Positions 3,782-39,454 of a DNA stretch of 40,850 nt are shown here, one piece after another; position 1 is the first letter of the stretch; every line of letters starts with the position of its first letter. Location: positions 1 to 40,850 of the forward strand of contig CAZWNN010000002.1 of the NCBI GenBank assembly GCA_964635935.1, in the 5' to 3' direction. The stretch comes from Candidatus Woesearchaeota archaeon. GTDB taxonomy: Archaea > Nanobdellota > Nanobdellia > Pacearchaeales > GW2011-AR1. Position numbers and translations under genes: made by a program. The notes under the pieces were generated by a model. It had not been told where the DNA came from. It saw only the letters and a list, made by a program, of their open reading frames with translations, and did not search any database.

Positions 3782-3795
3782 AAACATTTTAGGTG

Positions 3796-3906
3796 GGACA
3801 TGAAAAGGGGATTTTTGGTAGGGCGCGGTTTGTTAAAAACTGACTATAAACTACTGAGGAAGCGAACGAAGAGATGAGTGAGCGACTGGAGGAATGGAGA
3901 TGATTT
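3796..3906 (+). repeat. Intergenic repeat, family U copy 2
   Basis: Aligns with 1920..2016. Its sub-block AGGAAGCGAACGAAGAGATGAGTGAGCGACT (3857..3886) also resembles 304..336. Confidence 0.6.
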
Positions 3907-4252
3907 CAAATTTTTAATTGGTTATATGATGAGCGCGACCGAAGGTCGCGCCATCGGAGATGATATGGACGAACCTTTAGTTCGCTTATCTCTTGCGTGC
4001 CTAGCGGCACGCCGGGCCGTGCTTCGCACGGTTTAGTATCAATGCGTGGCGGTGGCGGGGGGTTTTCAATCGAAGTTTTTGATAAAACTTTTTTCAAAAA
4101 GTTTTGTTGGGGGGAGAAAAAATCTCACTGGTGGGTTGGGGGTGGTGGTGTGAGATTTTTTCTGGGGGTTTTGGGGGGGCGAGCGTTTAGGTCTCGACTA
4201 TTTTTTATATGATACGAGACCTGGGTGCGAGTTGCGGTTTGTGAAGACTTAA
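3887..4252. repeat. Hairpin-mosaic intergenic repeat, family H copy 1
   Basis: String of short GC-rich hairpins (GCGCGACC-GAAG-GTCGCGC, GTGCC-TAGC-GGCAC, CCGTG-CTTCG-CACGG, AAAACTTTTT/AAAAAGTTTT, GAGAAAAAATCTCAC/GTGAGATTTTTTCT, GGTCTCG/CGAGACC). Blocks are shared with 11016..11215 and 24410..24688. Confidence 0.7.
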
Positions 4253-4585
4253 TTATCTTGTAAAAATCTCACATAATTTTTCTTCAACTTGTTTTATTTT
4301 TTCTTGATTTAGTTTTCCTGCTTTGTAGCTAATTCTTGATTTATGAATTGTGAACAAGATAGAGGGTCTAATAAAACTATCACGATTTATTCCTCCAGAT
4401 TGAAAATCTTTAGATTTTAGTTCTAATAAATCTTGATCAGGTCGAGGTTGTCCGGTAATTTGGGCAAGAATAACATGTCTTCCTTTTGAATTTGCTACAA
4501 CTAAACTTGGTCTTTTTTTAGAAAGATATTTATCTGAAAATGGGAATTGGAAGATTACAACTTCACCTTTTACAAATCCTTCCAT
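4253..4585 (-). CDS. mazF: MazF/PemK-family type II toxin (endoribonuclease)
   Basis: GEVVIFQFPFSD....KKRPSLVV...ILAQITG pattern typical of PemK/MazF. 16-nt overlap with the upstream antitoxin ORF. Confidence 0.75.
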   Translation of the reverse strand: MEGFVKGEVVIFQFPFSDKYLSKKRPSLVVANSKGRHVILAQITGQPRPDQDLLELKSKDFQSGGINRDSFIRPSILFTIHKSRISYKAGKLNQEKIKQVEEKLCEIFTR

Positions 4586-4827
4586 GCTTCATCCTCTTCT
4601 GGAGTGTTCCATGCTTCTGCCAATACATCTTCACTCGCAAGCATGCACATCATAGCCTCACTCATTTCTTTTTCCATTGGTCTCAATTCAACCCTGTCTG
4701 GATAAACTAATATATTCACCTTTTTTCCCTCTTTAAAACCTGCTAGATTTCTCGCTGTACTTGGAATACAAATCTGTCCTTTGCTTGTGATTTTTGCAGT
4801 TCTTATTTCTTTGAGTTCTTCTGACAT
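4570..4827 (-). CDS. mazE: AbrB/MazE/SpoVT-family antitoxin
   Basis: ITSKGQICIPSTARNLAGFKEGKKVNILVYPDRVELRP swapped-hairpin motif. Sits upstream of and overlaps the MazF-like gene. Confidence 0.7.
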   Translation of the reverse strand: MSEELKEIRTAKITSKGQICIPSTARNLAGFKEGKKVNILVYPDRVELRPMEKEMSEAMMCMLASEDVLAEAWNTPEEDEAWKDL

Positions 4828-4892
4828 TTTCTTATATGTAAGAAAAGTAAGATATTTAAGGTTTTTGTTTTTTGGTGGTGGGTTGTGAAGAC

Positions 4893-7352: not shown

Positions 7353-7405
7353 CATATATACCCCACACCATAAATTTATAAAAACCCCGTGTGACTTCTT
7401 ATAAC

Positions 7406-9457
7406 ATGGCAGAGGTGTTTGAAGAGGTAGATGCTCCTGAGCGTGTTAAGCCAGGGCTGAAGCAGGAAGAGTTACTTAGTGAGGCGAAGAACTTTCTTAA
7501 TTCTTATAAAAAGGAAATTGGTGAGTCTTCTCGGCGGGGGGATAAAGTGGTTCATATTGATTTTAAGGCACTTTCTGAGGAGTCGCCTGTTCTTGCTGAG
7601 CAGGTTATTTTGAAACCTGAGGAAACCTTGCAACTACTGGAACTTGCTATGACTGAGTCAAATCTTATTGAAGCTCCGCGTGTTAGGATGAGCTCTCTTT
7701 CTGCTTCTCAGAGTATTAAGATTAGATATATTCGGGCGAAACATCTTGGGCAGATGATTGCAATTGAGGGCATTGTTAGGCAGGCTTCAGAAGTTAGACC
7801 GCAGGTTATAAATGCAAGGTTTGAGTGTCCTTCTTGCGGAACTATTATTTCTGTTTTGCAGATTGGCAAGAAGTTTCAGGAGCCGTCGCGATGTTCGTGT
7901 GGGCGGAGGGGGGGTTTTCGGGAATTGACTAAAGATATGGTTGATGCTCAGAGATTGGTGATTGAGGAGAGTCCTGATGATTTAGATGGCGGGGAGCAGC
8001 CAAAGAGGATGAGTGTTTTTCTTAAAGAGGATTTGGTTGAGCCGAAGATGGAGGAGAAGACTGCTCCTGGGAGTAAGGTGAGAATTATTGGGGTTTTAAA
8101 AGAGATTACAATTCATCTTGCAACTGGAGCTCTTTCAACTCGTTTTGATTTGGCAATTGAGGCAAATAATCTTATGCCTTTGGAAGAGAGTTTTGAGGAT
8201 TTGGAAATTAATGAGGAAGATGAGGAGGCGATTAAGGAGTTGGCTGCAGACCCAAAGATTTTAGATAAGGTTGTTGCGAGTATTGCTCCTTCTGTTTGGG
8301 GTTATAAGGAAATTAAGGAGGCTCTGGCCTTGCAGTTGTTTGGCGGGATTAAGAAGATGCGGAGTGACGGGACTTGGACTCGGGGGGATATTCATGTGCT
8401 GCTTGTTGGCGACCCTGGTGTTGCTAAGTCTGTTATGTTGAAGTATATTTCTGGGATTGCTCCTAAGGGAAGGTATGTTTCTGGCAAGTCTGCTTCTGGT
8501 GCTGGTTTGACTGCAACTGTTGTTCGTGATGAGTTTTTGCGAGGGTGGTCGCTGGAGGCTGGGGCTATGGTACTTGCGAACAAAGGAGTGGTTTGTATTG
8601 ATGAGTTAGAGAAGATGGATGAGAATGACAGAAGCACTATGCACGAGGCATTAGAACAACAAACTGTAACAATTTCTAAGGCTAATGTTCAAGCTACACT
8701 TCGTGCTGAGACTGCTGTTCTTGCTGCTGCAAATCCTAAGTATGGCAGGTTTGACCCGACTGAGATGATTGCTAAACAGGTTAATCTTGTTCCTTCGCTT
8801 TTGAATCGTTTTGATGTTATTTTTATTTTGAGAGATATTCCAAATAAAGAGAGAGATGAGTTGATTGCGTCGCATGTTTTGATGGAGCACAAGCAGGAGA
8901 CTAATTATGAATTGATTGATAAGCCTTTGCTGAGAAAATATATTGCTTATGCGCGTCAGAGATGCCGTCCTATTTTGACTAAATCTGCGATGGATGAGAT
9001 TAAGAATTTTTATGTTACTCTTAGGAACCAGCCGACTATTAGTGATGAAGTTTTGCGGCCGATTCCGATTTCTGCGCGTCAGTTAGAGGCGTTGATTAGG
9101 ATGGCTGAAGGGATTTCAAAGTCAAGGCTTGGGAAAAAAGTAACTATTAATGATGCAAAGAGGGCGATTGCGTTGATGAGATTTTATCTTATGCAGGTTG
9201 GTTATGATGAGGAGACGAAGAGTTTTGATATTGATAAGATTTCTGGGATGCCTGCTTCAAAGAGGGGAAAGATTCATATTATTAAAGAGGTGCTGGCTAA
9301 GTTGGAAGAGAGGTTAGGAAAACTTATTCCAATGGAAGAGATTGAGAAGGCTGTTGAAGGAAAGATGAATAAAGATGAGTTTGAAGAGGCAATTGACAAG
9401 CTGAAAAAAGCTGGGGATATTTTTAATCCTAGGCGGGGATACGTCCAACGTATGTAG
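7406..9457 (+). CDS. mcm: MCM replicative helicase
   Basis: Zn finger CPSCG..(x)..CSCG, Walker A GDPGVAKS, Walker B VCIDELEKM, arginine finger LLNRFDVIF, C-terminal winged helix. ATG at 7406 preferred over the GTG at 7391. Confidence 0.95.
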   Translation: MAEVFEEVDAPERVKPGLKQEELLSEAKNFLNSYKKEIGESSRRGDKVVHIDFKALSEESPVLAEQVILKPEETLQLLELAMTESNLIEAPRVRMSSLSASQSIKIRYIRAKHLGQMIAIEGIVRQASEVRPQVINARFECPSCGTIISVLQIGKKFQEPSRCSCGRRGGFRELTKDMVDAQRLVIEESPDDLDGGEQPKRMSVFLKEDLVEPKMEEKTAPGSKVRIIGVLKEITIHLATGALSTRFDLAIEANNLMPLEESFEDLEINEEDEEAIKELAADPKILDKVVASIAPSVWGYKEIKEALALQLFGGIKKMRSDGTWTRGDIHVLLVGDPGVAKSVMLKYISGIAPKGRYVSGKSASGAGLTATVVRDEFLRGWSLEAGAMVLANKGVVCIDELEKMDENDRSTMHEALEQQTVTISKANVQATLRAETAVLAAANPKYGRFDPTEMIAKQVNLVPSLLNRFDVIFILRDIPNKERDELIASHVLMEHKQETNYELIDKPLLRKYIAYARQRCRPILTKSAMDEIKNFYVTLRNQPTISDEVLRPIPISARQLEALIRMAEGISKSRLGKKVTINDAKRAIALMRFYLMQVGYDEETKSFDIDKISGMPASKRGKIHIIKEVLAKLEERLGKLIPMEEIEKAVEGKMNKDEFEEAIDKLKKAGDIFNPRRGYVQRM

Positions 9458-9477
9458 GGAACGAGCGAGAGGGGGGT

Positions 9478-9537
9478 AATTTACTTTTGACTATTTTAGG
9501 GCGGGTGGGAGGGTTATTTTATTTTCAAAAGTAAATT
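9478..9537. terminator. 13-bp inverted repeat between convergent genes (possible bidirectional terminator)
   Basis: AATTTACTTTTGA (9478..9490) pairs with TCAAAAGTAAATT (9525..9537), between the mcm stop and the stop of 9592..9798(-). Confidence 0.3.
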
Positions 9538-9591
9538 TTAAATTGGGTATGCAAACGAGTGTGGTAGGAGGGGTTTGGGCGGAGGATGTAA

Positions 9592-9798
9592 CTAATCTAC
9601 ATAAGATTGTTGATAATCACAAAATTTAGTAGGGTTAGGATGTTTTCTCCTGTATTTTTCTGATTTATCTAATTGCTCTAAAAATTGTTCAGCCCATTCA
9701 TGAAATTCATCTCTGTTTTTCCTTAGCCTTTCATTTTGTTCTTCCCAACTTAGTTGTTGCCATTCTTCAAATGTTTCTTTTAGTGGGAGATAAACCAT
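9592..9798 (-). CDS. Hypothetical small protein
   Basis: 68-aa ORF, charged and helical-looking. No recognised motif. Confidence 0.4.
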   Translation of the reverse strand: MVYLPLKETFEEWQQLSWEEQNERLRKNRDEFHEWAEQFLEQLDKSEKYRRKHPNPTKFCDYQQSYVD

Positions 9799-9890
9799 AA
9801 TAAATTAAGGATTCACAGGTATTTAATTTTTTTGTTTATTGATAACTGTGTGGTTGATTTTTTGATTATTATGGTTTTGGCTTGTTAGTC

Positions 9891-9945
9891 TTTGCGGAAA
9901 TCCAAACAATCATATAAAATAAGTTTGGATTTCTGTTGGTTTTGC
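9891..9945 (+). repeat. Family R hairpin element copy 1 (candidate structured RNA)
   Basis: TTGCGGAAAT-CCAAAC-[15 nt AT loop]-GTTTGG-ATTTCTGTTGGTTTTG. 13-bp stem 9895..9907 / 9923..9935 with one G.T pair. Confidence 0.65.
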
Positions 9946-10043
9946 AGAGCATCATTCTCATGATAATAAAGATGTTTGTTGTGATTACTTAATATTAACT
10001 CAACCACAACAATCCTTATAAAATAAAACATTTTTCTTAGAAC

Positions 10044-10685
10044 ATGGATGCACTTGAAAATCAAGAGTTCAAGAAGAGAAATGTAGCTTACAAGTTGCGG
10101 GTTGGAGATATTTTGAAGTCAAAGCCTGTGATGTCTGAGGGTGGTGGGGAGACTGCTGCTCGGCTTTTATTTTTGGAGTTGGGAGATAAAAAGATTGTGC
10201 GGGTGAATCTTCTGGCAAATGTTGTTGATAAGTTTGTAAATGATGGTGAGAAGAAGTATGCTTCTGTTACTGTTGATGATGCGTCAGGGCAGATTCGGTT
10301 GAAAGCTTTTGGAGAGGAGATTGTAATTTTGACGGACTGTACTCAGGGAGATACTTTGCAGATTATTGGGAATGTTAGGGAGTGGAATAGTGAGCTTTAT
10401 ATTTTGCCGGAGATTGTGAAGAAGGTTGACCCGAAGTGGCTGCTTGTTCGGAAATTGGAGATTCAGAACTCGCGGAAAGATATTCCTTTGCAGGCAAATG
10501 CTCCTGTGCGTGATGTTGTTTTTGATAAGATTAAGAGTGCAGAGGCTGATGGTGGTGTTGATGTTGACCAGTTAATTATGGATACTGAGGCTTCTCCTGA
10601 TTTGATTAATGCTGAAGTTAAGAAATTATTAGAAGAGGGTTTAATTTATGAGCCACGTCCTGGGCGGTTGAGGTCTCTGGGATAG
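10044..10685 (+). CDS. OB-fold nucleic-acid-binding protein with C-terminal winged helix (RPA32/Stn1-like)
   Basis: Central OB-like segment (VRVNLLANVVDKF....ASVTVDDASGQIRLKAFGE...GDTLQIIGNVREWN.ELYI) and C-terminal wH-like LINAEVKKLLEEGLIYEPRPGRLR. Confidence 0.55.
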   Translation: MDALENQEFKKRNVAYKLRVGDILKSKPVMSEGGGETAARLLFLELGDKKIVRVNLLANVVDKFVNDGEKKYASVTVDDASGQIRLKAFGEEIVILTDCTQGDTLQIIGNVREWNSELYILPEIVKKVDPKWLLVRKLEIQNSRKDIPLQANAPVRDVVFDKIKSAEADGGVDVDQLIMDTEASPDLINAEVKKLLEEGLIYEPRPGRLRSLG

Positions 10686-10744
10686 GTTTGATTTAAGTTT
10701 AGTGGTAAGAAAGATATAAAAAAAATAGATGCTTTTAAAATAAA

Positions 10745-10933
10745 ATGATTGGTGAAAAATCATATCGGCGTTTGGTAAGGGATCGTGCAAGAACAAGGCC
10801 CATCTTAGATGAACATGGAAGACCTGTGTGGCCTGAAGAGCTTTTATCTCCTGATAATTCCCAAGATACCTTAGGTAGTTTTTATGATTCAAATGATTCT
10901 GGGAATAAATCTTCTGAACAAAACGAGATGTAG
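10745..10933 (+). CDS. Hypothetical small protein
   Basis: 62-aa ORF only. No recognised motif. Confidence 0.3.
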   Translation: MIGEKSYRRLVRDRARTRPILDEHGRPVWPEELLSPDNSQDTLGSFYDSNDSGNKSSEQNEM

Positions 10934-10961
10934 TGAGAAATTTTATATTTCTAACGGCTAA

Positions 10962-11016
10962 CTCACGATTCACTCTTTGGAAATTATAGAGAAAATAGCC
11001 AAGAGCAAATCGTTCG
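10962..11016 (+). repeat. Family S hairpin repeat copy 1
   Basis: CTCACGATTCACTCTTTGG-AAATTATAGAGAAAATAG-CCAAGAGCAAATCGTTCG, near-identical to 19792..19846. Confidence 0.7.
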
Positions 11017-11215
11017 GAGGAATGGGGATGATTTCAAATTTTTAATTGGTTATATAATTACATCGGAGATGATATTGGCGAATCTTCGATTCGCTTATAT
11101 CTTGCGTGCCTAACGGCACGCCAAGTTCGCCTTCGGCGATTTGTGATTGTGGTGTGGCTTTGGTGATGTGAGGTTTTTCTGGAGGTTTTTGGGATAAAAT
11201 TCACAATAGTTAACA
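11016..11215. repeat. Hairpin-mosaic repeat, family H copy 2
   Basis: 40-nt block 11016..11055 matches 3888..3927 (1 mismatch). CATCGGAGATGATAT and TTCGCTTATNTCTTGCGTGCCTANCGGCACGCC blocks are shared with H1. TTCGCCTTCGGCG(A)TTTGTGATTGT is shared with 26088..26111. Confidence 0.7.
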
Positions 11216-11420
11216 CTTCTTTTGAGCTGTTTTTCCGTCGACAAAATTAAAAATAAAAAGATTAATAAACAGGGGAGTGCTAAAATATTATTAAAAAGGA
11301 GGTGTCTCGGAAATTTCTGGGATAAACAAACATGGCAAAAAAGAAAAAGGCAAAAAAGAAAAAGAAGTGAGCTTGTCTACTTAATTTTTACACCTTCTTA
11401 TTTATTTTTTTGTTTTGTTA

Positions 11421-11666
11421 TAGATTCCCAATAAATTGCAAGAGCTCTGAAATTCTTCGTCTTTTCTTAAAGTATTCGTCTCTTCCATGGTCGGGGATTC
11501 CTGTATCTTTAGGGATATCTTCAGCAGAAACTTTTTTTACTAAACTAGGTTTTATTCTAACTTCATCTCTTAGTTCTGTATAAATTAGAACTGGGTGTTC
11601 TTCGTTTTCTTGTCTTTCTCCAGAAGCATCATAACCTAAGACAATCCCAAATCTTTCTAAGTGTAA
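11421..11666 (-). pseudogene. Start-less 82-codon open frame (possible gene remnant)
   Basis: Hand translation of the minus strand gives LHLERFGIVLGYDASGERQENEEHPVLIYTELRDEVRIKPSLVKKVSAEDIPKDTGIPDHGRDEYFKKRRRISELLQFIGNL. No in-frame ATG/GTG/TTG near the 5' end, and TAA stop at 11418..11420. Confidence 0.25.
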
Positions 11667-11704
11667 TTAAGGAAAAGAAACAATTTGACCTAATTTAAAA
11701 ACAA

Positions 11705-19707: not shown

Positions 19708-19791
19708 TGTAATTTCTTAGAAAAACAAAGGTATATAAGTTTTTATGTAGTGGGGTATATAATTAGGCAGTTGCAAACCTAAGTATCGCTA

Positions 19792-19846
19792 CTCACAATT
19801 CACTCTTCGGAAATTATAGATAAAGTAGCCAAGAGCAAATTGTTCG
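19792..19846 (+). repeat. Family S hairpin repeat copy 2
   Basis: CTCACAATTCACTCTTCGG-AAATTATAGATAAAGTAG-CCAAGAGCAAATTGTTCG. Same 55-nt length as copy 1, with a compensatory A-T versus G-C pair. Confidence 0.7.
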
Positions 19847-19854
19847 CCAACCCC

Positions 19855-21247: not shown

Positions 21248-21308
21248 ATAAGAACCTCAAAAAAAGAGTTTAAAAATAAATGTGTTGTTTAGTATATGTT
21301 TCATAAGA

Positions 21309-21384
21309 GATTAATTTTTTAAAGTTATTGCGGAAATTTAGCAAGTATCTTGTTTATTATTGTGCTAAATTTCTGTTGGCTATG
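21309..21384 (+). repeat. Family R hairpin element copy 2
   Basis: GATTAATTTTTTAAAGTTATTGCGGAAAT-TTAGCA-[loop]-TGCTAA-ATTTCTGTTGGCTATG. Stem 21331..21343 / 21363..21375. Confidence 0.65.
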
Positions 21385-21392
21385 AAGGTTAA

Positions 21393-23735
21393 CTAGTCTA
21401 AGAATTCCACCTTGAATTTACCTTCTTTAATCTCTTTTGCATTTACAACTGATTTTAAATCATCAAGCATTGCTTTTAAATCTTCTTGGTCTTTTTTAGA
21501 AAGAGTTAGGATAATTTCTGCTTTTACTGATTTTTGTGCTTTTGATTTTTCTTGGCGGGTTTTTGAGAGAATATTGTAAAATCTTAGGAGCAATGATTCG
21601 TCTTTTGTTGAGATTTTTGATGTGGGTTTGAAATCTGGCCATTCTGAAATATGAATTGATTTTGTTTTTTCTGTTTTTTTAAAAAAGGTTTGGTAAATTT
21701 CTTCTGTGATGAAGGGCATTATTGGGGCGAGAAGTTTTAGAATTGTCAGCAGAGATTTATAGAGGGTATATTGGGCAGAGATTTTTTTGCTTGCTTTTTC
21801 ATTGTAAATTCTGTATTTTATTATTTCGAGATAGTTGTCTGCAAAATCTTTCCAAAAAAAGTTTTCAACTCGGGCTTTTGCTTTGCTGTATTCATAGTTT
21901 TCAAAATAATCTGTTGTGTCTTTTGCCATTATCGCGAGACTTTCTAAAAATAATTTGTCTGTTTTTTCTAGTTTTGGTTTTTGGGCTTGATAATCTTCTA
22001 AGTTCATGAAGACAAATCTCGAGGCGTTTCGAAGTTTGTTTATTAGTTTTTTTCCTGCTACTAAATCTTGTTCTTGATAGTCTAAATCTTCACCTAGTTT
22101 TGAGCCTGCTGCCCAGAATCTGAGGGCGTCTGCTCCATATTTGTCCATTACTTCTTTTGGTTGAATCCCAGTTCCTTTTGATTTTGACATTTTTTTCCCG
22201 CCGAGGGTGACATAACCAGATACTACAATGTCATTCCAGGGGATTTTGTTTTCATGGTAGAGAGATTGGACAATTGTGTAGAAAGCCCAGGTTCTGATTA
22301 TATCATGAGCTTGGGGTCTTAGAGAGAATGGAACCTGAACCTTATTATTTATTAGTGAAGATGCAATTTGGGGTGTTAGCGAAGATGTTGCCCAGGTGTC
22401 TAAAACTTTTGTTTCTGGTTCTGCTTGTTTTTTGCATTTTGGGCAGATTTTTTTTGTTTGCAGTGGGTCTACTGGCAATTCGCTTTCCTTAGGCAGAATA
22501 ATTTCTTTGCAAGATTTGCATTCCCAAACTGGAATTGGAACTCCAAAGTGTCTGTCTCTTGAAATTGACCAGTCCCATTCAAGACCCTTAACCCAGTTTT
22601 CATATCTCACTCTCATAAATTCCGGATGCCATTTTATTTTTCTTCCTTGATTGATTAATTGATTTTTTTTATCTAATAATTTGATGAACCACTGCTCTGT
22701 TGAAAGAAATTCTATCGGTGTTCCGCATTTGTCATGAACATTCACGACGTGGTCAATTGATTTTTGTTCTTTTACTAAGTTTGCTTTTTCTAGGTCTGTT
22801 AGGATTTGTTTTCTTGCTTGTTCTATTTTAAGACCCTTATAATTTGTGGTGTTTAGTGTTCCATCTTTATTGATAATTAGTTTTGGTTTTAATTTGTGCT
22901 TTGCGATTGCTTCAACATCAAATTTGTCTCCGTAAGAGCAGACCATTAAAATTCCTGTTCCTTTTTGTATTTCTGCTGAGCTGTCTTTTATTATTGGAAC
23001 TTCAAAATTAAAAAGAGGAACTTTTGCTTTTTTTCCTTTAAGAGAGCTATATCTTTTATCTTTTGGATTTATGAAAACTGCGACGCAGGCAGGCAAGAGT
23101 TCTGGTCTTGTTGTTGCAATTAAAAGGTCTTTTTCATTTACCTTAAATTTTAGATTTGAAAATAAGGTGTTTTCTTCTTTGTCTTCAAGTTCTGCCTGCG
23201 CAATTGGAGTCTGGCATTCTGTGCACCACAGAGTTGGGAATTCTTTTTTATAGATTTTGTCTTCTTTGAATAAATCAATAAAAGATTTTTGAGAAATCTT
23301 TTGGGTTGGCTTGTCAATAGTTGAATAATAAATATCATAGTCGCAGGAGATTCCTAAATCTATGTAATCTTGAATGCATTCTGGGGTTACTTTTTTTAGT
23401 GTTTCTAAGCATAACTCGATAAATTCTGCTCTTGACATGTTTTTGCTTTTTACATTATTGGTTTTTTCAATAAATCTCTCTGTCGGCAGTCCGTTGTCGT
23501 CAGTTCCAAAAGGGTAGAAAACTCCTTGCTTCATTCTTCTGTATCTTGCGATGAAATCTTGCTGGGAGTAGGAGAAGGCGTGGCCAATGTGCATTCTTCC
23601 GGAGATGTATGGCGGAGGGGTGTCTATGCTATAGATGTTTTTCTTTTTTGGGTCGAACTTGTAAACTTTTTCTTTTTCCCAAAAGTTCTTTATCTTTTCT
23701 TCTGATTTTTTAAAATCATATTGCTTGCTCTTCAT
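21393..23735 (-). CDS. valS: Valyl-tRNA synthetase
   Basis: IDTPPPYISGRMHIGHAFSY (HIGH region in ValRS context), KMSKSKG, and GADALRFW. Confidence 0.85.
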   Translation of the reverse strand: MKSKQYDFKKSEEKIKNFWEKEKVYKFDPKKKNIYSIDTPPPYISGRMHIGHAFSYSQQDFIARYRRMKQGVFYPFGTDDNGLPTERFIEKTNNVKSKNMSRAEFIELCLETLKKVTPECIQDYIDLGISCDYDIYYSTIDKPTQKISQKSFIDLFKEDKIYKKEFPTLWCTECQTPIAQAELEDKEENTLFSNLKFKVNEKDLLIATTRPELLPACVAVFINPKDKRYSSLKGKKAKVPLFNFEVPIIKDSSAEIQKGTGILMVCSYGDKFDVEAIAKHKLKPKLIINKDGTLNTTNYKGLKIEQARKQILTDLEKANLVKEQKSIDHVVNVHDKCGTPIEFLSTEQWFIKLLDKKNQLINQGRKIKWHPEFMRVRYENWVKGLEWDWSISRDRHFGVPIPVWECKSCKEIILPKESELPVDPLQTKKICPKCKKQAEPETKVLDTWATSSLTPQIASSLINNKVQVPFSLRPQAHDIIRTWAFYTIVQSLYHENKIPWNDIVVSGYVTLGGKKMSKSKGTGIQPKEVMDKYGADALRFWAAGSKLGEDLDYQEQDLVAGKKLINKLRNASRFVFMNLEDYQAQKPKLEKTDKLFLESLAIMAKDTTDYFENYEYSKAKARVENFFWKDFADNYLEIIKYRIYNEKASKKISAQYTLYKSLLTILKLLAPIMPFITEEIYQTFFKKTEKTKSIHISEWPDFKPTSKISTKDESLLLRFYNILSKTRQEKSKAQKSVKAEIILTLSKKDQEDLKAMLDDLKSVVNAKEIKEGKFKVEFLD

Positions 23736-24407: not shown

Positions 24408-24409
24408 TA

Positions 24410-24688
24410 ATTAATCGATGGTTAGTTGATACTAAATCGCCGGAGGCGATCTTCCGTGCCCGCTAGGGCACGCTATAATAAGCTTGCCTCGCGGCAAGCC
24501 AAAATGTGCTTCGCACTTTAGTATCAATGCGTGGCGGTGGTTTGGTAGAAGAAGTTTTTGATAAAACTTTTTTCAAAAAGTTTTCGAGCGAGTCTTAAAG
24601 ACGAGCGAGTGGGGTGGTGGGGGCGGGTTTTGGAGGTTTGATTAAGCCGTACCCGAAGGGTTTAGTATGACGCAGACAGCCACCACCC
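24410..24688. repeat. Hairpin-mosaic repeat, family H copy 3
   Basis: Hairpins ATCGCC-GGAG-GCGAT, GTGCCC-GCTA-GGGCAC and GCTTGCC-TCGC-GGCAAGC. Blocks 24506..24540 and 24551..24584 match 4019..4055 and 4072..4105. Confidence 0.7.
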
Positions 24689-25639
24689 TGTAGAAGCAAC
24701 TGACATATGTCAGTAGCTAACCGAAAATTAGTTCTCATTTGATTTTAGGTTTGTTCTATGAAAAAAGAACAAATCAGGAAAGAATTTTTCAAGTTAAGAA
24801 TTAAACGCCATTCCTATAATCAATGTAGAAGGATATTGAAAGCAAAGTTTGAATATGAAGTTTCATTAAGAACATTATATAGATGGAGTAAAAGACTTAA
24901 TGAAACTGAATGGGATTTGAGAGACAAATCAAAAACACCGAAGAGGATTCATTACAAGATCACTTCTAGAATAGAAAAAAAGATTCTTGAGATTAGATCC
25001 AAAACCGGATGGGGTCAAGAAAGAATTGCAGACTATGTTAATGTTAGTCATTGGTCTGTTAATAAAATTCTTCATAAGTACAAATTAACAGAGCAATGTA
25101 AAAGAAAAAAGAAAAGAAACAATTATGTTCACTTTGAAAGAGAACATCCCAATACAATGTGGCAAATAGACCATAGTGATCAAAAAGTAAAAGACAAATG
25201 GTTAATTTCTGTTATTGATGATCATTCTCGTTTTAGCATTGGGTTGTTTGCGGTTAATAGAGTAACAACAAAAGTTGTGACGAAACTTTTAGATGATTTA
25301 ATTAAAATTCATGGAAAGCCGAGCCAAATTTTATCAGATAATGGCTCGGCTTATGGACTAAAAAGTAAACATTCTAAATTTGATAGGTGGTGCTGTCGAA
25401 GAGGAATTCACCATATTAGAAGTGCTGTCCATAGCCCGACAACTTGTGGCAAGGTTGAAAGGTTATTTCAAACAATTAAAAGAGAATTAAAGTTTTGCAA
25501 TAATGATCTCTAGTTTTTTAGAATGAGATATAACCATTTTAGAAGTCATAAAAGTCTTAATAACAAAACTCCGGCAGAGGTTTATTTTGATTTCGCTAGT
25601 TTATTTTAGGGGGTGACATATGTCACCTGCGTGCACACT
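24689..25639 (+). mobile_element. IS element (IS481/IS3-like DDE transposase) with about 24-bp imperfect terminal inverted repeats and a 14-bp direct duplication
   Basis: Left end TGTAGAAGCAACTGACATATGTCA versus reverse complement of right end TGTGCACGCAGGTGACATATGTCA (19/24). GACAGCCACCACCC occurs at 24675..24688 and 25640..25653. Confidence 0.7.
24758..25513 (+). CDS. DDE (rve-type) transposase interrupted by an in-frame TAG; frame continues to 25609
   Basis: N-terminal HTH, then WQIDHSD, LSDNGSAY and GKVERLFQTIKRE (D-D-E). After TAG 25511..25513 the same frame encodes FFRMRYNHFRSHKSLNNKTPAEVYFDFASLF, the conserved rve C-terminus. Confidence 0.75.
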   Translation: MKKEQIRKEFFKLRIKRHSYNQCRRILKAKFEYEVSLRTLYRWSKRLNETEWDLRDKSKTPKRIHYKITSRIEKKILEIRSKTGWGQERIADYVNVSHWSVNKILHKYKLTEQCKRKKKRNNYVHFEREHPNTMWQIDHSDQKVKDKWLISVIDDHSRFSIGLFAVNRVTTKVVTKLLDDLIKIHGKPSQILSDNGSAYGLKSKHSKFDRWCCRRGIHHIRSAVHSPTTCGKVERLFQTIKRELKFCNNDL

Positions 25640-29399: not shown

Positions 29400-29404
29400 T
29401 TTTC

Positions 29405-29590
29405 CTAAAGATCATCTAAATCTTCTTCTCTGCAAGGCCTTGCTCCTTGTTGTAATAATTCAGGAAAATATCTTTCAATAAAATCCGGTGGTAAATCTCT
29501 TGGAATTGCTTCTCTTCCAGGGAATTTTATGCCGGATCTGTATAAAAGATGAAGTGCTTCATATTCTAAATCCCTTGCTCCAAGTGCCAT
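29405..29590 (-). CDS. Hypothetical small protein inside the topA 3'-end duplication
   Basis: 61-aa ORF, opposite strand, lying between the two copies of the topA terminal sequence. Confidence 0.4.
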   Translation of the reverse strand: MALGARDLEYEALHLLYRSGIKFPGREAIPRDLPPDFIERYFPELLQQGARPCREEDLDDL

Positions 29591-29626
29591 GGTTTTTAAT
29601 AGATATTAAAGTATTTTAATTTTTCT

Positions 29627-29693
29627 GTTTTGTTTTAATCCTGAGTGTGCTAGTCGGAAGAAGGGTGGTGAAAAAGTTAAAGAAAATAGTTAA
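29627..29693 (+). pseudogene. Displaced second copy of the topA 3' end
   Basis: GTTTTGTTTTAATCCTGAGTGT(G)CTAGTCGGAAGAAG repeats 29339..29375 with 1 mismatch. In frame it reads FCFNPECASRKKGGEKVKENS*, versus the live end FCFNPECPSRKKWEGKEKK*. Confidence 0.65.
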
Positions 29694-29728
29694 TTATTAA
29701 TTGCGTGGTTTTGAATTAATTTCTGATT

Positions 29729-29803
29729 GATTAATTTTTTATAGTTATTGCGGAAATCTTGCCTTGTCTTATTTATTCTTGGGCAAGATTTCTGTTGGTT
29801 TTG
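29729..29803 (+). repeat. Family R hairpin element copy 3
   Basis: GATTAATTTTTTATAGTTATTGCGGAAAT-CTTGCC-[loop]-GGCAAG-ATTTCTGTTGGTTTTG. Stem 29751..29763 / 29782..29794. Confidence 0.65.
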
Positions 29804-29862
29804 AGGAGTGTTGTTGACTTAATCACAACAAGGTTTTTATAGTTTGATTACTAAAAAAATAT

Positions 29863-30075
29863 ATGGATGAAAATCAAGAAGATCCTGGAAGAGAGAAAAG
29901 ACTTGCTTTTTTGAGAAAATTGCATGGGCAACTTTCAGGGGGACGTACTGAGCGGACTGATCCTATTTTAAATGGCAATGCTCGGCAAAGGGGTGTGGTT
30001 GCCTATCATGGTGTTGAAGCGGAATTGGATGCTGGTGAAGCTTATGTTAGAGCTTGTGAGCTAAGAGGCATCTAA
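29863..30075 (+). CDS. Hypothetical small protein
   Basis: 70-aa ORF preceded by a CACAACAAGG-TTTTTATAG promoter-like box. No recognised motif. Confidence 0.4.
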   Translation: MDENQEDPGREKRLAFLRKLHGQLSGGRTERTDPILNGNARQRGVVAYHGVEAELDAGEAYVRACELRGI

Positions 30076-30077
30076 AT

Positions 30078-33620: not shown

Positions 33621-33646
33621 AGCCTAAGACACCTCCGGTTTCTTTG

Positions 33647-33698
33647 CTCACAATTTACTCTTGTATTATTTCTAAATTTGTCAAGAGCAAATTGCTCG
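33647..33698 (+). repeat. Family S hairpin repeat copy 3
   Basis: CTCACAATTTACTCTTG-[AT loop]-CAAGAGCAAATTGCTCGG, 12/13 stem pairs. Lies in the mre11-rad50 spacer. Confidence 0.6.
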
Positions 33699-33729
33699 GC
33701 TTCAACTTCCCTTAAATTTAGTTTGATTA

Positions 33730-34917: not shown

Positions 34918-34973
34918 GTTTTTTGGAGAGCTGCTGATTATTTAAAGATGATTGTGATTTAGTTATATGAATT

Positions 34974-35085
34974 CCCCCTCGCAAAATCCGTTCACTTCGG
35001 CAATTCACAATTCACTCTTGTATAATATTTAAGATAGTCAAAAGCAAATTGTTCACACTCTCACATTTTGCTACCACCATAAAAG
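34974..35085 (+). repeat. Family T repeat copy 2 carrying a nested family S hairpin (copy 4, about 35005..35056)
   Basis: Outer parts CCCCCTCGCAAAATCCGTTCACTTCG ... CACATTTTGCTACCACC match 26874..26930. The inner TTCACAATTCACTCTTG...CAAAAGCAAATTGTTCAC is the S hairpin. Confidence 0.6.
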
Positions 35086-35373
35086 TTTATGATCTCCTAG
35101 GGGAAACCTTTGGCAGTTACTAAACTTTTTGGGTGCGAGAGCGGGAGCGAATCTTTGAGAGCGGAGCTCTAGCAGGAATTATTTATTTCAAATTTCTTCA
35201 CTACTTTCAAATCAACAAAAATTCAAGAAGGTTTAAATAGAGTTTGAAAATCTTTGGTTTTAAAAGTGTTTCGTAAGGTTTTTAATAGGTTTTTTGCGTG
35301 TATGCTTTTATGAATAAAACGGGGGTATATTTAATGGCAGAGGACGAAGCTGAAGAAACTGAAGAGTAGTTTT

Positions 35374-35887: not shown

Positions 35888-36931
35888 TTATTTAATTGAG
35901 TTATTTATCTTAATTACAAGATTTTTCCTTAATTTAAAAGTATTTGCCCATTTTGCATAAGCTTGCCATCCTTGATAACTTTCTAGAATTTTTTCTTTAT
36001 CTATTATTTGACTTCTAAACAAATTAAGTTTGTTTTCCATATTCTTAATGTTTCTTCTTCTTAATAATTTGAAATAATAAAAAATTCTAAAACCGACAAA
36101 ATCAATTCCTTTTGATAATGGAATAATGCGTGATTTCTGTGGGTGAAGTTCTAATTTTAAATTCTCTTTTAGAAATTTGTTTATTTGTTTTTTCCAAATT
36201 TGTAATTGTTCTTTTGATTTATGAAGAAGAATAAAGTCATCAACATAACGTATATAGTATTTTACTTTTAATTTATGTTTGACAAAATAATCTAACTCAT
36301 TGAGATAGAGGTTAGCGAAGAATTGGCTTGTTAAATTTCCTAAGGGCATTCCTTTTTCTTTATATCCATTTTCAAGTATCTTCTTTATTAACCAAATAAC
36401 TTTTTTATCTTTTATTTTTCTTTTAATTATGTTTAACAAAATTTCATGATTTACTTCCTGGAAATAGTGCTTGATATCTGCTTTTAAGCAATAACCTTTT
36501 ATTTGATTATTATTAAACCAGCCATTTAATTTGCCATTTCTTGAAATTTTTTTCATAAACTTATAAAATCTTTTTAAAGCAAATAGATTACCTTTTCCTA
36601 TTCTATTTGCACATGAATCATAAATAAATCTTTTATCAAAAATTGGTTCAAGGATTCTTATTAAAGCATGATGAACAATTCTGTCTCTAAAAGCAGACTT
36701 ACTTATTTTTCGTGTTTTTGGATCTCTTAAAATAAATGTTTTTAGTGGTTTAGGAGAATAAGTCAAGTTTTTTAATTCGTATTGCAATTTCAATAGATTT
36801 TTATACAGATTAGCTTCAAACTCAAGAACATAATTTTTCTTAGTTTTTCCTTTTCGTGCTTTTTTCCATGCAAAGGTTAGATTATCTAAGGAGATAATTT
36901 TATTGTATAAATTTTTATAAGATTTCATCAT
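35888..36931 (-). CDS. DGR-type reverse transcriptase
   Basis: RT motifs include IRYVDDFILL (YVDD) and PLGNLTSQFFANLYLNELD (the I/LGxxxSQ signature of DGR RTs). The TR sits 21 nt upstream of the ATG. Confidence 0.9.
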   Translation of the reverse strand: MMKSYKNLYNKIISLDNLTFAWKKARKGKTKKNYVLEFEANLYKNLLKLQYELKNLTYSPKPLKTFILRDPKTRKISKSAFRDRIVHHALIRILEPIFDKRFIYDSCANRIGKGNLFALKRFYKFMKKISRNGKLNGWFNNNQIKGYCLKADIKHYFQEVNHEILLNIIKRKIKDKKVIWLIKKILENGYKEKGMPLGNLTSQFFANLYLNELDYFVKHKLKVKYYIRYVDDFILLHKSKEQLQIWKKQINKFLKENLKLELHPQKSRIIPLSKGIDFVGFRIFYYFKLLRRRNIKNMENKLNLFRSQIIDKEKILESYQGWQAYAKWANTFKLRKNLVIKINNSIK

Positions 36932-36952
36932 AAGTGTCTTGTGAACTAAGGC

Positions 36953-37035
36953 TATTCCGAAAGCATGACCGTTCCTGTTATCATCATGGTAGTTGCCATT
37001 GACATTAAGCCTGTCGTTGTAGTCGTTGAGCGCGG
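36953..37035 (-). repeat. DGR template repeat (TR)
   Basis: Non-coding copy of the VRs. The sense strand reads ..GCGCTCAACGACTACAACGACAGGCTTAATGTCAATGGCAACTACCATGATGATAACAGGAACGGTCATGCTTTCGGAATA, with 7 AAY codons in the VR frame. Confidence 0.9.
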
Positions 37036-37206
37036 CCAGACATGTAGTCTATTAATTTAAAGTAAATCACCAAAGTTTCAAGTTTCATTTTCATTACTAT
37101 TTGTCACTTTTGAATTTTATGGCTTTTTTAAAAAGCACTATTAACAGACATGTAGCCTTAGTTCATTGGAGAGTGCCTCCCTAAGACAAATTATTAGAAA
37201 AAAGGT

Positions 37207-37235
37207 TATTTATAAACTTAACTTAAAAAAATTTG
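37207..37235 (-). promoter_or_regulatory. Candidate promoter for the TR-RT transcript
   Basis: The minus strand reads CCACAAATTTTTTTAAGTTAAGTTTATAAATA: a CACAA box plus TATA-like boxes, upstream of the 5' arm of the TR-enclosing helix. Confidence 0.3.
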
Positions 37236-37236
37236 T

Positions 37237-37251
37237 GGTGCCTTCGGCACC
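37237..37251 (-). promoter_or_regulatory. GC-rich hairpin 6 nt downstream of VR1 (candidate DGR target-recognition element)
   Basis: GGTGCC-TTC-GGCACC (sense strand GGTGCC-GAA-GGCACC). The TR lacks an equivalent. Confidence 0.6.
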
Positions 37252-37254
37252 TAA

Positions 37255-37965
37255 TTATACCCCGAAAGCATGACCGCCCCAGTCATCAACACGGCAGTCG
37301 CCACCGACACAAAGCCCGCCGTAGTAGCCGTCGAGCGCGGTTACTCTTTGAACAGGAGATTTTCCTTCTTGAATATCTAACCCCCATGTTTTTGGTGGAT
37401 CTTTAAACTCTTCTGAAACTTCTGCTAATCTTTCTGCACCTTCTTGTCCAAAACTTGCAACAACAAATCCATCTTTTGCTAAGGATTCTTTAGTGTGTTC
37501 TCCTATTGAATAACTTCCCTTAGGGGCAAATCTTATGGTTCCATCAGAACTATATAAAATAGGGCTTCCTGCAGGACTTTCACTTAATTTTCTTTCTAAA
37601 TCTTCTTGATCTAAGGGCTGACTTACTCCTATTGCTTCTGGGTCTGATACAACATAAACACCTTTTGAAGTCCATAAATTCTGGTCAAAACTCCATAGCC
37701 ATCTATTTTTCATAATTAAATCTCTGATTTTTGTGATTTCTTCTCTTTCCTTGAAGTCTTCAGGGCCGCAATATGCAGCATGAAGGAGATATGCTGTTTG
37801 TTCTGCAATTGGGAGTGTTAATCCTCTTGCTAAAATTCCTTTTCCTACTGTTGGATAATTATGTGGACCTTGTGAAGGATGAACAAAGATAATGTTTCCA
37901 TCTCTTCCAGGAACTTCTATTTCAGTTCTTCCTCTCCTTACTTCATAAGTTTTTGCTTCTTCCAT
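37255..37965 (-). CDS. DGR target protein 1 (VR at extreme C-terminus)
   Basis: 236 aa, ends ..TALDGYYGGLCVGGDCRVDDWGGHAFGV*. Paralog of 37967..38677. No N-terminal signal or TM. Confidence 0.85.
   Translation of the reverse strand: MEEAKTYEVRRGRTEIEVPGRDGNIIFVHPSQGPHNYPTVGKGILARGLTLPIAEQTAYLLHAAYCGPEDFKEREEITKIRDLIMKNRWLWSFDQNLWTSKGVYVVSDPEAIGVSQPLDQEDLERKLSESPAGSPILYSSDGTIRFAPKGSYSIGEHTKESLAKDGFVVASFGQEGAERLAEVSEEFKDPPKTWGLDIQEGKSPVQRVTALDGYYGGLCVGGDCRVDDWGGHAFGV
37258..37340 (-). repeat. DGR variable repeat VR1
   Basis: 79-nt core 37262..37340 versus TR 36957..37035: 17 differences, all at TR plus-strand T (sense-strand A). Confidence 0.9.
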
Positions 37966-37966
37966 T

Positions 37967-38677
37967 TTATCTTTTTTCTCTCTCAGATTCAGCGCGACTG
38001 GCTTCGCCAGTTTTCAATACCCCGAAAGCATGACCGTTCCTGCTACCACCACGGTAGCTGCCATCGACACCAAGCCCGTCGCCGTAGCCGTCGAGCGCGG
38101 TATATCTCTTATCCTTTACTTCTGAATGATCTACTCCATGAATATAAGTCTCCTTCTTGTCAACAGCTTTAGCAACTTTTTCAACAATAGGGAGCATATC
38201 CTCTCCTCCAACCTGAGCCACTAAATAAGGATTTTTTAAAAGATCTGAAATTGGCATGTATCTTGTTTTAAATCCTAGCTTAACAAGTCTTACTCTTTTA
38301 TCTCCAACCTCAATTAATTTAAGCAATCCAACACTATCTGAAGGCATAGTTCCATCAATATCATCATAAACAAGAACTCCTCCAGGGAATGCTGTGCTTC
38401 TTGTAGAGGTCCATAAGTAATCATCTCTGAAGATTCTTAATAAATCAGCAAAACCTGGTTCATCTTCATTTTGAAGAGCTATATTTAATAAAGAAAATGT
38501 TTGGGCGGTTGTAGGTCTTAATAATCCTTGAGAATCAATTTCTCCCATAACCTTTGGGTAATTGTTTGGACCGACTAAGGGTGTAACAAAGGTTACAATC
38601 TCGCCTCTGTGAGGAATATCGATTTCAGTTCTTGCTATTCTTATTTTTCCTCCGCCCTCTAAGGCTCTTGTTTCCAT
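37967..38677 (-). CDS. DGR target protein 2 (VR followed by a 16-aa tail)
   Basis: 236 aa, ..TALDGYGDGLGVDGSYRGGSRNGHAFGVLKTGEASRAESEREKR*. The stop lies 1 nt before the target1 ATG. Confidence 0.85.
   Translation of the reverse strand: METRALEGGGKIRIARTEIDIPHRGEIVTFVTPLVGPNNYPKVMGEIDSQGLLRPTTAQTFSLLNIALQNEDEPGFADLLRIFRDDYLWTSTRSTAFPGGVLVYDDIDGTMPSDSVGLLKLIEVGDKRVRLVKLGFKTRYMPISDLLKNPYLVAQVGGEDMLPIVEKVAKAVDKKETYIHGVDHSEVKDKRYTALDGYGDGLGVDGSYRGGSRNGHAFGVLKTGEASRAESEREKR
37997..38011 (-). promoter_or_regulatory. GC-rich hairpin 6 nt downstream of VR2 (inside the coding tail)
   Basis: ACTGGC-TTC-GCCAGT. Same loop and same 6-nt spacing from the VR end as the VR1 hairpin. Confidence 0.6.
38018..38100 (-). 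repeat. DGR variable repeat VR2
   Basis: 79-nt core 38022..38100 versus TR: 13 differences, all at TR sense-strand A (all A->G). Confidence 0.9.
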
Positions 38678-39217: not shown

Positions 39218-39325
39218 GTTTGTTTTTGGGGTTTTTGATTATTAAATGTTACGGGTTACTCCACCCCACCCTAAAAGTTTAGTAAGTGCTAAAATATCCT
39301 TTTAAAAAATAAATCAGACGCTTTG

Positions 39326-39397
39326 CAAAACCAACAGAAATTTAGCCATCTTATATATTCTTGGCTAAATTTCCGCAATAACTATAAAAAATTAATC
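39326..39397 (-). repeat. Family R hairpin element copy 4 (inverted orientation)
   Basis: The reverse complement reads GATTAATTTTTTATAGTTATTGCGGAAAT-TTAGCCA-[loop]-TGGCTAA-ATTTCTGTTGGTTTTG. Confidence 0.65.
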
Positions 39398-39454
39398 ATG
39401 ACTTTAACCCATAAATTAGTTAGGAATTACTAAATTGTGAATAGTGAGCGATAA

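Follow-up and report, generated by a model that had tools for sequence, protein, structure and literature searches.

What kind of entity is a hairpin that recurs four times within one stretch of archaeal DNA, each time with other letters in its stem and matching changes on both sides: a structured RNA, a DNA site read by a protein, or a small mobile element? The window, by which we mean the whole stretch of 40,850 nucleotides analysed here, has a G+C content of 30-40% and carries archaeal genes for MCM, an RPA-like OB-fold protein, aRF1, a class-I tRNA synthetase, a topoisomerase I/III-type enzyme, RadB, Rad50/Mre11-like proteins, ScpB, and an RNase J-like beta-CASP nuclease. Among MCM genes elsewhere, the nearest (63-77% identity) all come from metagenome-assembled genomes (MAGs) labelled Woesearchaeota, Pacearchaeota, or Nanoarchaeota, and proteins identical to those of the window are found on short contigs of several metagenomes. 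The host is a tiny, symbiotic DPANN archaeon, and its AT-rich genome is that of a member of the Nanoarchaeota, Woese-/Pacearchaeota-like.

The hairpin family, here called R, was proposed in a first-pass annotation of the window, and its four copies are present as described there. The pattern TTGCGGAAAT–[palindrome]–ATTTCTGTTGG gives four exact matches at the places which that annotation had named (chance expectation 0), and the pattern TGCGGAAAT-N20-45-ATTTCTGTTGG matches at 9893-9939(+), 21329-21379(+), 29749-29798(+), and 39331-39377(-), with no match in 100 dinucleotide shuffles of the window. A full covariance model scan with filters off found no fifth R copy in the window. The stem tops listed in the annotation are those observed, as is the common stem foot CGGAAAT/ATTTCTG with its identical G.T pair in four of four copies. 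When folded, all four copies are more stable than their shuffles on both strands (z -3.4 to -6.1), the listed strand being the more stable of the two, at -18.5 to -21.5 versus -10 to -14.8 kcal/mol on the opposite strand.

The four copies differ in completeness and setting. Copy 1 (9835..9995, + strand) has its core hairpin at 9892-9939, with stem CCAAAC/GTTTGG and a loop, AATCATATAAAATAA, of the 'flop' class, as opposed to 'flip'. Its left arm carries a variant left box, TTTATTGATAAC, followed by TGTGTGGTTGA. The block GATTAATTTTTTAWAGTTAT, which the earlier annotation had bracketed, is missing from this copy; its right side comprises the 3′ block TTTTGCAGAGCATC and, at 9984-9992, the right box ATTACTTAA. 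The unit occupies a divergent spacer of 245 nt between a 68-aa ORF (9592-9798, -) and the RPA-like gene (10044-10685, +). Copy 2 (21286..21392, + strand) is right-truncated, has its core at 21328-21379 with stem TTAGCA/TGCTAA and a 'flip' loop, and meets the convergent class-I tRNA synthetase gene (21393-23735, -), the stop codon of which is 13 nt from the core; it is antisense to both neighbouring genes. Copy 3 (29690..29856, + strand) extends from the left box TTAATTATTA at 29690-29699, through the core at 29748-29798 with stem CTTGCC/GGCAAG and the 'flip' loop TTGTCTTATTTATTCTTG, to a right arm with a small second hairpin (TTGTTG..CAACAA), the TATA-like TTTTTATAG, and the right box GATTACTAAA at 29847-29856, after which a 70-aa ORF follows directly (29863-30075). 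Copy 4 (39278..39434, - strand) begins with the left box TTTAGTAATT at 39434-39425, about 20 nt past the stop codon of the RNase J-like gene, and continues through the core at 39378-39331 (stem TTAGCCA/TGGCTAA, 'flop' loop AAGAATATATAAGAT) to the right box CTTACTAAA at 39286-39278. The sequence of copy 4 is identical in four other samples.

As these limits indicate, the first-pass coordinates pointed to the right places and spanned only the centre of a longer conserved unit, which is non-coding and about 165-170 bp long. In pairwise comparison, paralogues cease to be homologous about 56-61 nt left of the core and 52-59 nt right of it. In multiple alignment the unit ends in a left box, TTTAGTAATT (or TTAATTATT), and a right box, AATTACTAAA, which are mutually inverted; they are about 10 bp long, imperfect in single copies, and often each palindromic by itself, so that they could alternatively derive from a palindromic target, as its halves or as duplications of it. 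Between them lie the conserved blocks (TTGATTAA)TTTTTTATAGTTA on the 5′ side of the core and TTTTG-NAGAGCGTC on the 3′ side, and a TATA-like ATTATAAATA about 30-40 nt downstream of the core. The invariant part consists of TWWAGYTN-TTG, the foot CGGAAAT/ATTTCTG with its fixed G.T, and TTGG. Because most copies were retrieved by an exact flank pattern, this flank invariance is inflated, whereas the variable part was unconstrained in the search. The best-conserved part of the unit is its centre, not its ends.

The claim that stem variation is fully compensated is borne out beyond the window. In a model-guided alignment of 43 distinct rows, which was itself fitted to the structure, 96.3% of the cells of the 13-bp stem (the hairpin measures 13-14 bp) are in standard pairs, and 68 cells carry double-sided changes compared with 14.9 in shuffles (0/500); as a control, sliding the pairing partners by one column lowers pairing to 52-66%. 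All four Watson-Crick pair types occur at two stem positions. In one copy (L075), an otherwise invariant foot pair has changed on both sides from U-A to C-G, and one subfamily keeps a constant 18-nt loop while the stem below it reads CTTG, TCAG, or TTAT. The two halves of the foot are separated by an AT-rich spacer of near-constant length, 27-31 bp. The solid stem positions are almost purely Watson-Crick apart from the foot G.T, and the remaining wobbles are mostly uncertain loop-closing T.G pairs; wobble statistics are therefore not decisive for strand, and the foot G.U wobble, which had been offered as an indicator of the transcribed strand, is a weak one. Two further pairings were tried and rejected. 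An outer helix, P0 (TAGYT with GGNYT), is 65-68% paired in two registers, mostly by G.U and with no real covariation, and in long-range pairing of left arm with right arm, matched arms do no better than mismatched or shuffled ones. Nothing beyond the 13-14-bp hairpin is supported as structure.

How widespread is the family? Among 185,579 species genomes (GTDB), the exact pattern gave mostly single chance matches, in unrelated bacteria that lack the stem. The corresponding metagenome scan returned 62 loci, which separate into chance matches with 0-2 pairing positions and 32 distinct family members with 5-7, a split that serves as an internal control. The covariance model R1 added copies with slightly different flanks, which brought the set to 39 distinct cores, drawn from the source population and a single related genome. 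Of 80 related genomes whose MCM regions (1.3 Mb in all) were scanned, only the closest, L121 (CAZBOY010000023), had copies, and the other 79 had none. The CAZBOY genome holds copies on at least four contigs, about eight of them in 32 kb, and its RPA-like protein is 76% identical to that of the window; relatives whose RPA-like protein is 85-92% identical have no R unit in 25 kb. The distribution is thus patchy, with closer relatives empty and a more distant one populated, and recognisable R units occur in only two species. Their density is four per 40.8 kb in the window and overall about one per 4-10 kb. A viral origin was considered and dropped, as IMG/VR contained no family member. Rfam returned nothing at the copies at gathering and permissive thresholds, the best hits (E ~0.8, at copy 4) being to unrelated snoRNA and miRNA models, and the family is undescribed by the searches made.

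The placement of the units relative to genes is informative about what they are not. R copies are always intergenic, and no ORF overlaps any of the 39 distinct cores. The spacers around 25 units comprise 8 convergent, 7 divergent, 5 tandem co-oriented, and 5 tandem antisense cases, counts that match random placement and thereby argue against a terminator or a UTR element. The earlier assertion that orientation is independent of the neighbouring genes therefore stands, as does its doubt about a simple terminator, given the seven units in divergent spacers. In convergent spacers the unit fills the entire gap, the end boxes beginning 0-20 nt past both stop codons, and right truncations with a convergent stop codon 9-16 nt from the core are seen in window copy 2, L121:4159, and L072. 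The units occur singly; even the closest pairs have a gene between them and lie 0.6-1.8 kb apart, and at some loci two direct copies flank one gene. The idea that such enclosed genes are transposases or cassettes was rejected, for they are housekeeping genes instead: those between nearby pairs include an RNase Z-like metallo-beta-lactamase and a putative translation initiation factor (both named from sequence), and membrane proteins.

Comparison of orthologous spacers reveals gain and loss. Along the syntenic stretch from MCM to ScpB, no copy is common to the window and L121: the 245-nt spacer of window copy 1 corresponds to an empty 97-nt spacer in L121, that of copy 2 to one of about 52 nt with no unit, and L121 in turn carries units downstream of RPA and of ScpB, at places that are empty in the window. 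In four closer relatives (L267-L270) the spacer upstream of RPA measures 44-106 nt and holds no unit, and no R copies occur in L267-L271. The promoter motif AACTCAACCACAA… is retained in the spacers of these relatives; in the window it begins 3-4 nt past the right box of copy 1 and thus marks the right end of an insertion. The copy beside RadB has a counterpart of another subfamily in the same relative place in L073 and L106 (RadB 94% and 89% identical, respectively), and in an orthologous spacer of L089 and L118 the units belong to different subfamilies and have opposite orientations. The small ORFs beside RadB (61 aa and 70 aa; window 29400-30077) are replaced by unrelated small ORFs in L073 and L106, the spacer being hypervariable. 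Decay is also evident, with degenerate stems at L080:1816 and L059 and a palindrome precisely deleted at L108:1541, leaving TTGCGCAAATTTCTGTTGG. The best whole-unit identity between copies at different loci is about 85-86%, so that there are no near-identical whole units to document recent transposition.

A further clue lies in the loops, which form two classes, 27 flip and 10 flop, that are mutual reverse complements relative to fixed asymmetric flanks. Read as its reverse complement, the loop of window copy 1 agrees with the L099 loop at 15/15 positions and with the L073 loop at 14/15, over stems that are the same or differ by one pair, and within the window the loops of copies 3 and 4 are reverse complements of each other at 13/15. 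The inversion is confined to the perfectly paired part above the G.T. Loops in both orientations against fixed flanks indicate that the top of the palindrome has been repeatedly inverted at the DNA level. Hairpin template switching inverts loops and perfects quasi-palindromes; by analogy, it would yield both the flips and the 'fully compensated' stems without selection at the RNA level. Loop flips also occur in hairpins that work as RNA, so that flipping is compatible with an RNA role. A perfect-stem loop in both orientations is likewise established for the minute inversions of non-coding chloroplast DNA and for the terminal flip/flop hairpins of parvoviruses and poxviruses. There, as in R, the inversion is bounded by a perfectly paired stem between copies that are otherwise homologous, whereas those cases are single-locus UTR hairpins or replicon termini and R is a dispersed family with conserved asymmetric flanks.

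To which of the three readings does this evidence point? We favour, at about an even chance of being right, the reading that R is a REP/MITE-like non-autonomous mobile repeat with the hairpin foot as its conserved recognition structure. A discrete unit with inverted end boxes, random spacer placement, independence of orientation, gain and loss, patchiness, subfamilies, and a series of decaying copies is the signature of a small non-autonomous mobile repeat. Of the options that the first-pass annotation had named, namely an independent RNA, a protein-recognised cruciform, and a MITE-like unit, the last fits best, on account of its discrete boundaries and inverted end boxes, presence or absence at orthologous spacers, patchy distribution, and decayed copies; the loops in both orientations add DNA-level dynamics, and the independent RNA is left without support. 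In that its conserved part is, unusually, a central hairpin foot flanked by single-stranded segments, R resembles REP/REPIN repeats and the folded-strand recognition of IS200/IS605-type elements more than classical MITEs based on terminal inverted repeats. HUH/Y1-type enzymes recognise the hairpins of REP and IS200/IS605 elements as folded single strands. In R, the invariant flanks and the foot with its G.T probably form a cis-acting structure read by a trans-acting enzyme on a folded single strand, most likely single-stranded DNA during replication or transposition, while the 5-7 bp above the foot may need only to pair. Complementarity of the stem would then persist because a hairpin able to fold is selected for, probably with the help of hairpin-templated (template-switch) correction at the DNA level, and such correction would also invert the loop and give rise to the flip and flop forms. 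The invariant foot G.T, and the constant loop of one subfamily over a varying stem, are features that a functional RNA or a site bound by a protein could show as well.

A mobile repeat of a known kind would be expected to bring further marks, and these were sought. The clear target-site duplications by which the earlier annotation would have recognised inert MITEs were not seen: the direct similarity between the two ends of a copy scores 7.22, against 6.84 for mismatched copies (p = 0.08), no consistent duplication is visible at the junctions, and 'inert MITE' is at most a candidate label. No cognate transposase is encoded in the window, where the only transposase (rve/HTH, 24758-25513) has unrelated ends, and no Y1/HUH gene is among the genes of the 40-kb window. 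That transposase, on the + strand, is of the DDE type, with an rve core, an HTH_32 domain, and a candidate flanking inverted repeat, TGTAGAAGCAACTGACATATGTCA / TGACATATGTCACC... With neither a target duplication nor, in the window, a cognate enzyme found, R is not called a member of the MITE or REP/REPIN kinds.

The likeness to both kinds is nonetheless considerable. The REP/REPIN-RAYT systems of bacteria, as established, are likewise extragenic hairpin repeats at about one per several kb with compensated stem changes, and share with R a conserved single-stranded motif by the foot, gene-independent orientation, lineage-specific patchiness, and the fact that no target duplication is seen. They differ in that REP has GTAG directly 5′ of the stem, whereas R has TWWAGYTN-TTG, with TAG 7-8 nt from the foot; in that REPs are 20-40-nt palindromes in inverted doublets (REPIN/BIME), whereas R units are singletons of about 165 bp; and in that REP hosts are bacteria with a RAYT, whereas R resides in a DPANN archaeon with no RAYT gene among the window genes. 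Established MITEs such as the Correia elements of Neisseria are, like R, non-coding, 100-200 bp long, multi-copy, and intergenic with inverted end boxes, and both exhibit insertion polymorphism, subfamilies, truncated copies, and sometimes promoter-like ends. In contrast to MITEs, R has end boxes of only about 10 bp that are imperfect, no target-site duplication was found for it, nor any cognate IS in the window, and, unlike in classical DDE-type MITEs, its most conserved part is the central hairpin foot rather than the termini. Structured RNA families in Rfam also share with R a covariation-backed stem-loop with conserved flanks, whereas R has no match near threshold there and no sign of a promoter or terminator of its own or of conserved synteny.

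Transcription signals were assessed with a BRE/TATA matrix built from the gene upstreams of the source population itself. Upstream of most genes, about -29 to -22 relative to the ATG, there is a TATA box of the form TTTAWAAA (window upstreams e.g. 7353-7406 and 10007-10046), an arrangement consistent with mRNAs that are mostly leaderless, as judged from sequence; the start of MCM is probably ATG 7406, not GTG 7391. In the left arm of R, no consistently placed forward promoter was found, the median best score of 2.6 being below the shuffled median of 3.3 and the positions scattered, and the conserved TTTTTTATAG block, if taken as a promoter, would place the start site inside the hairpin or point leftward. 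In about 25% of copies the TATA-like box of the right arm scores at promoter level in either direction; among shuffles the share is 6%. No consistent oligo-T terminator was found at the R copies, where T-runs are short and on one strand only. The end boxes were also considered as a general promoter-proximal motif and rejected as such, with four exact TT[TA]CTAA matches, at -16 to -14, among the 100 gene upstreams. In L085 (1726-1860), a tRNA-like sequence (GCCCTCATAGCTCAGCCTGG…CTTCTAAG…, anticodon TCT by eye) immediately follows the right end box of R, and since the TATA-like TTTTATATAG of the unit lies about 28 nt upstream, the right arm there may serve as a tRNA promoter.

Four other explanations have to be weighed against the mobile repeat. 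The hairpin could belong to a family of independently transcribed small structured RNAs, in which a dedicated protein binds the invariant foot and single-stranded flanks, while the variable stem would either be free to vary as long as it pairs or be the part that confers specificity. Strong covariation and significant folds speak for such RNAs, as do the foot G.T, which reads as G.U only on the listed strand, the two-sided change of the L075 foot pair, the subfamily with a constant 18-nt loop over CTTG, TCAG, or TTAT stems, the indifference of orientation to neighbouring genes, and the right-arm boxes that score like real promoters in about a quarter of copies. We nevertheless consider this reading, which the earlier annotation had put forward, rather unlikely: the listed strand has no consistently positioned promoter, TTTTTTATAG would start transcription inside the hairpin, and terminators, Rfam matches, and positional conservation between species are all lacking; a loop that occurs as a sequence and as its reverse complement is not readable strand-specifically, and degenerate and truncated copies are common. 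The same invariant and slightly asymmetric foot suggests sequence recognition rather than mere pairing, and could instead mark a host DNA site for a nucleoid-associated protein, a regulator, or an Orc1/Cdc6-like protein, bound either as inverted half-sites, (T)GCGGAAAT and CAGAAAT, three helical turns apart across an AT-rich spacer of 27-31 bp, or as an extruded cruciform. Orientation independence, intergenic location, and loop flipping as the mark of a dynamic DNA palindrome agree with this, and GGAAA-containing inverted boxes around AT-rich DNA presumably recall archaeal origin recognition boxes. Half-sites, however, leave unexplained why every intact copy has a perfect palindromic spacer; the units are tied to no specific class of gene or of promoter, turnover so fast and a distribution so patchy are unlike conserved regulatory sites, and one unit per 4-10 kb is far too dense for replication origins. 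We regard a host site of this sort as unlikely.

A cis-acting RNA hairpin of the neighbouring genes, be it a terminator, a 3′-end stabiliser, or a bidirectional insulator, would account for units that fill convergent gaps with end boxes 0-20 nt past both stops and that fold on both strands. It is highly improbable, since 7/25 units sit in divergent spacers with no gene reading in and 5/25 are antisense to both neighbours, the spacer types being random, and since T-runs are short and one-stranded and most gene ends in the window are without the element. Integrons have been reported in DPANN-type archaea, and a conserved foot with variable stem and loop, together with the loci where two direct copies surround a single gene, invites comparison with attC-like or other site-specific recombination sites that delimit gene cassettes. 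Complementary R''/R' core sites are absent, however, the 5′ flank AGTTATTG failing to pair with the 3′ flank GTTGGTT; the copies have mixed orientation and no adjacent integrase, and the genes between them are housekeeping genes (MCM, RPA-like, topoisomerase, RadB, RNase Z-like, putative translation initiation factor). The gene content and the missing core-site complementarity effectively refute this reading, whose chance is next to nil. Other candidates were dismissed more directly: for a tRNA or split tRNA, the window yields no ARAGORN prediction and neither a T-arm nor a D-arm can be fitted; for C/D-box, H/ACA, and K-turn RNAs, the boxes mismatch on reading and the snoRNA matches are weak (E ~0.8); and no link was found to the neighbouring diversity-generating retroelement (DGR) and its RT-16 RNA. 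The most far-reaching version would have about 100-250 hairpins per genome, as independently expressed RNAs or as single-stranded DNA, with a dedicated protein that reads foot and flanks and 4-6 variable bp that act as an address code, amounting either to an archaeal system with no described counterpart or to the first REP/RAYT-like hairpin transposition in DPANN archaea; we think it quite unlikely.

If R is a mobile repeat, it would offer a tractable hairpin-centred element in archaea, the cis structure of which natural covariation has already defined, and its turnover could mark evolution at the strain level. DPANN genomes are very small, yet an estimated 2-4% of the DNA of this lineage is R repeat, given one unit of about 165 bp per 4-10 kb. 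The family also sounds a caution for RNA-motif discovery: compensated stems and flipping loops can arise and persist at the DNA level, and covariation alone is thus no proof of an RNA gene.

The spacers of the window also hold several other hairpin repeat families. A second one, approximately CACAATTCACTCTT-[loop]-AAGAGCAAATTGTTCG, is an imperfect inverted repeat with variable loops in the intergenic stretches 10686-11704, 19708-19854, 33621-33729, and 34918-35373. A third repeat, found at 3782-4252, 10686-11704, and 24408-24757, consists of GC-rich short hairpins such as GCGCGACCGAAGGTCGCGC, GCGTGCCTAGCGGCACGC, and GTGCTTCGCAC, followed by the palindrome TTTTTGATAAAACTTTTTTCAAAAAGTTTT and G-rich tracts. 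G-rich boxes (GGTGGTGGGG, GGGTGGGGTGG, GGGCGGGTGGGAGGG) recur near gene ends in many spacers, e.g. 4828-4892, 9458-9591, and 39218-39270, often following TTTTAG, and may be terminator or G-quadruplex-like motifs of the host genome.

Two further systems accompany these repeats. An overlapping pair of genes at 4253-4827 (-) encodes a MazF/PemK toxin and a MazE-like antitoxin. The DGR, complete at window 35888-38677 (-), comprises a reverse transcriptase (35888-36931), a template repeat (~36934-37036), the RT-16 RNA (37039-37186; Rfam, 102 bits), and two paralogous genes of 236 aa (37255-37965 and 37967-38677) as targets. Over the length of the repeat, nearly all differences between the template and the target 3′ ends (~37239-37341 and ~37999-38101) fall on adenines of the template, and the target proteins are 97-98% identical between samples, compared with 100% for their neighbours.
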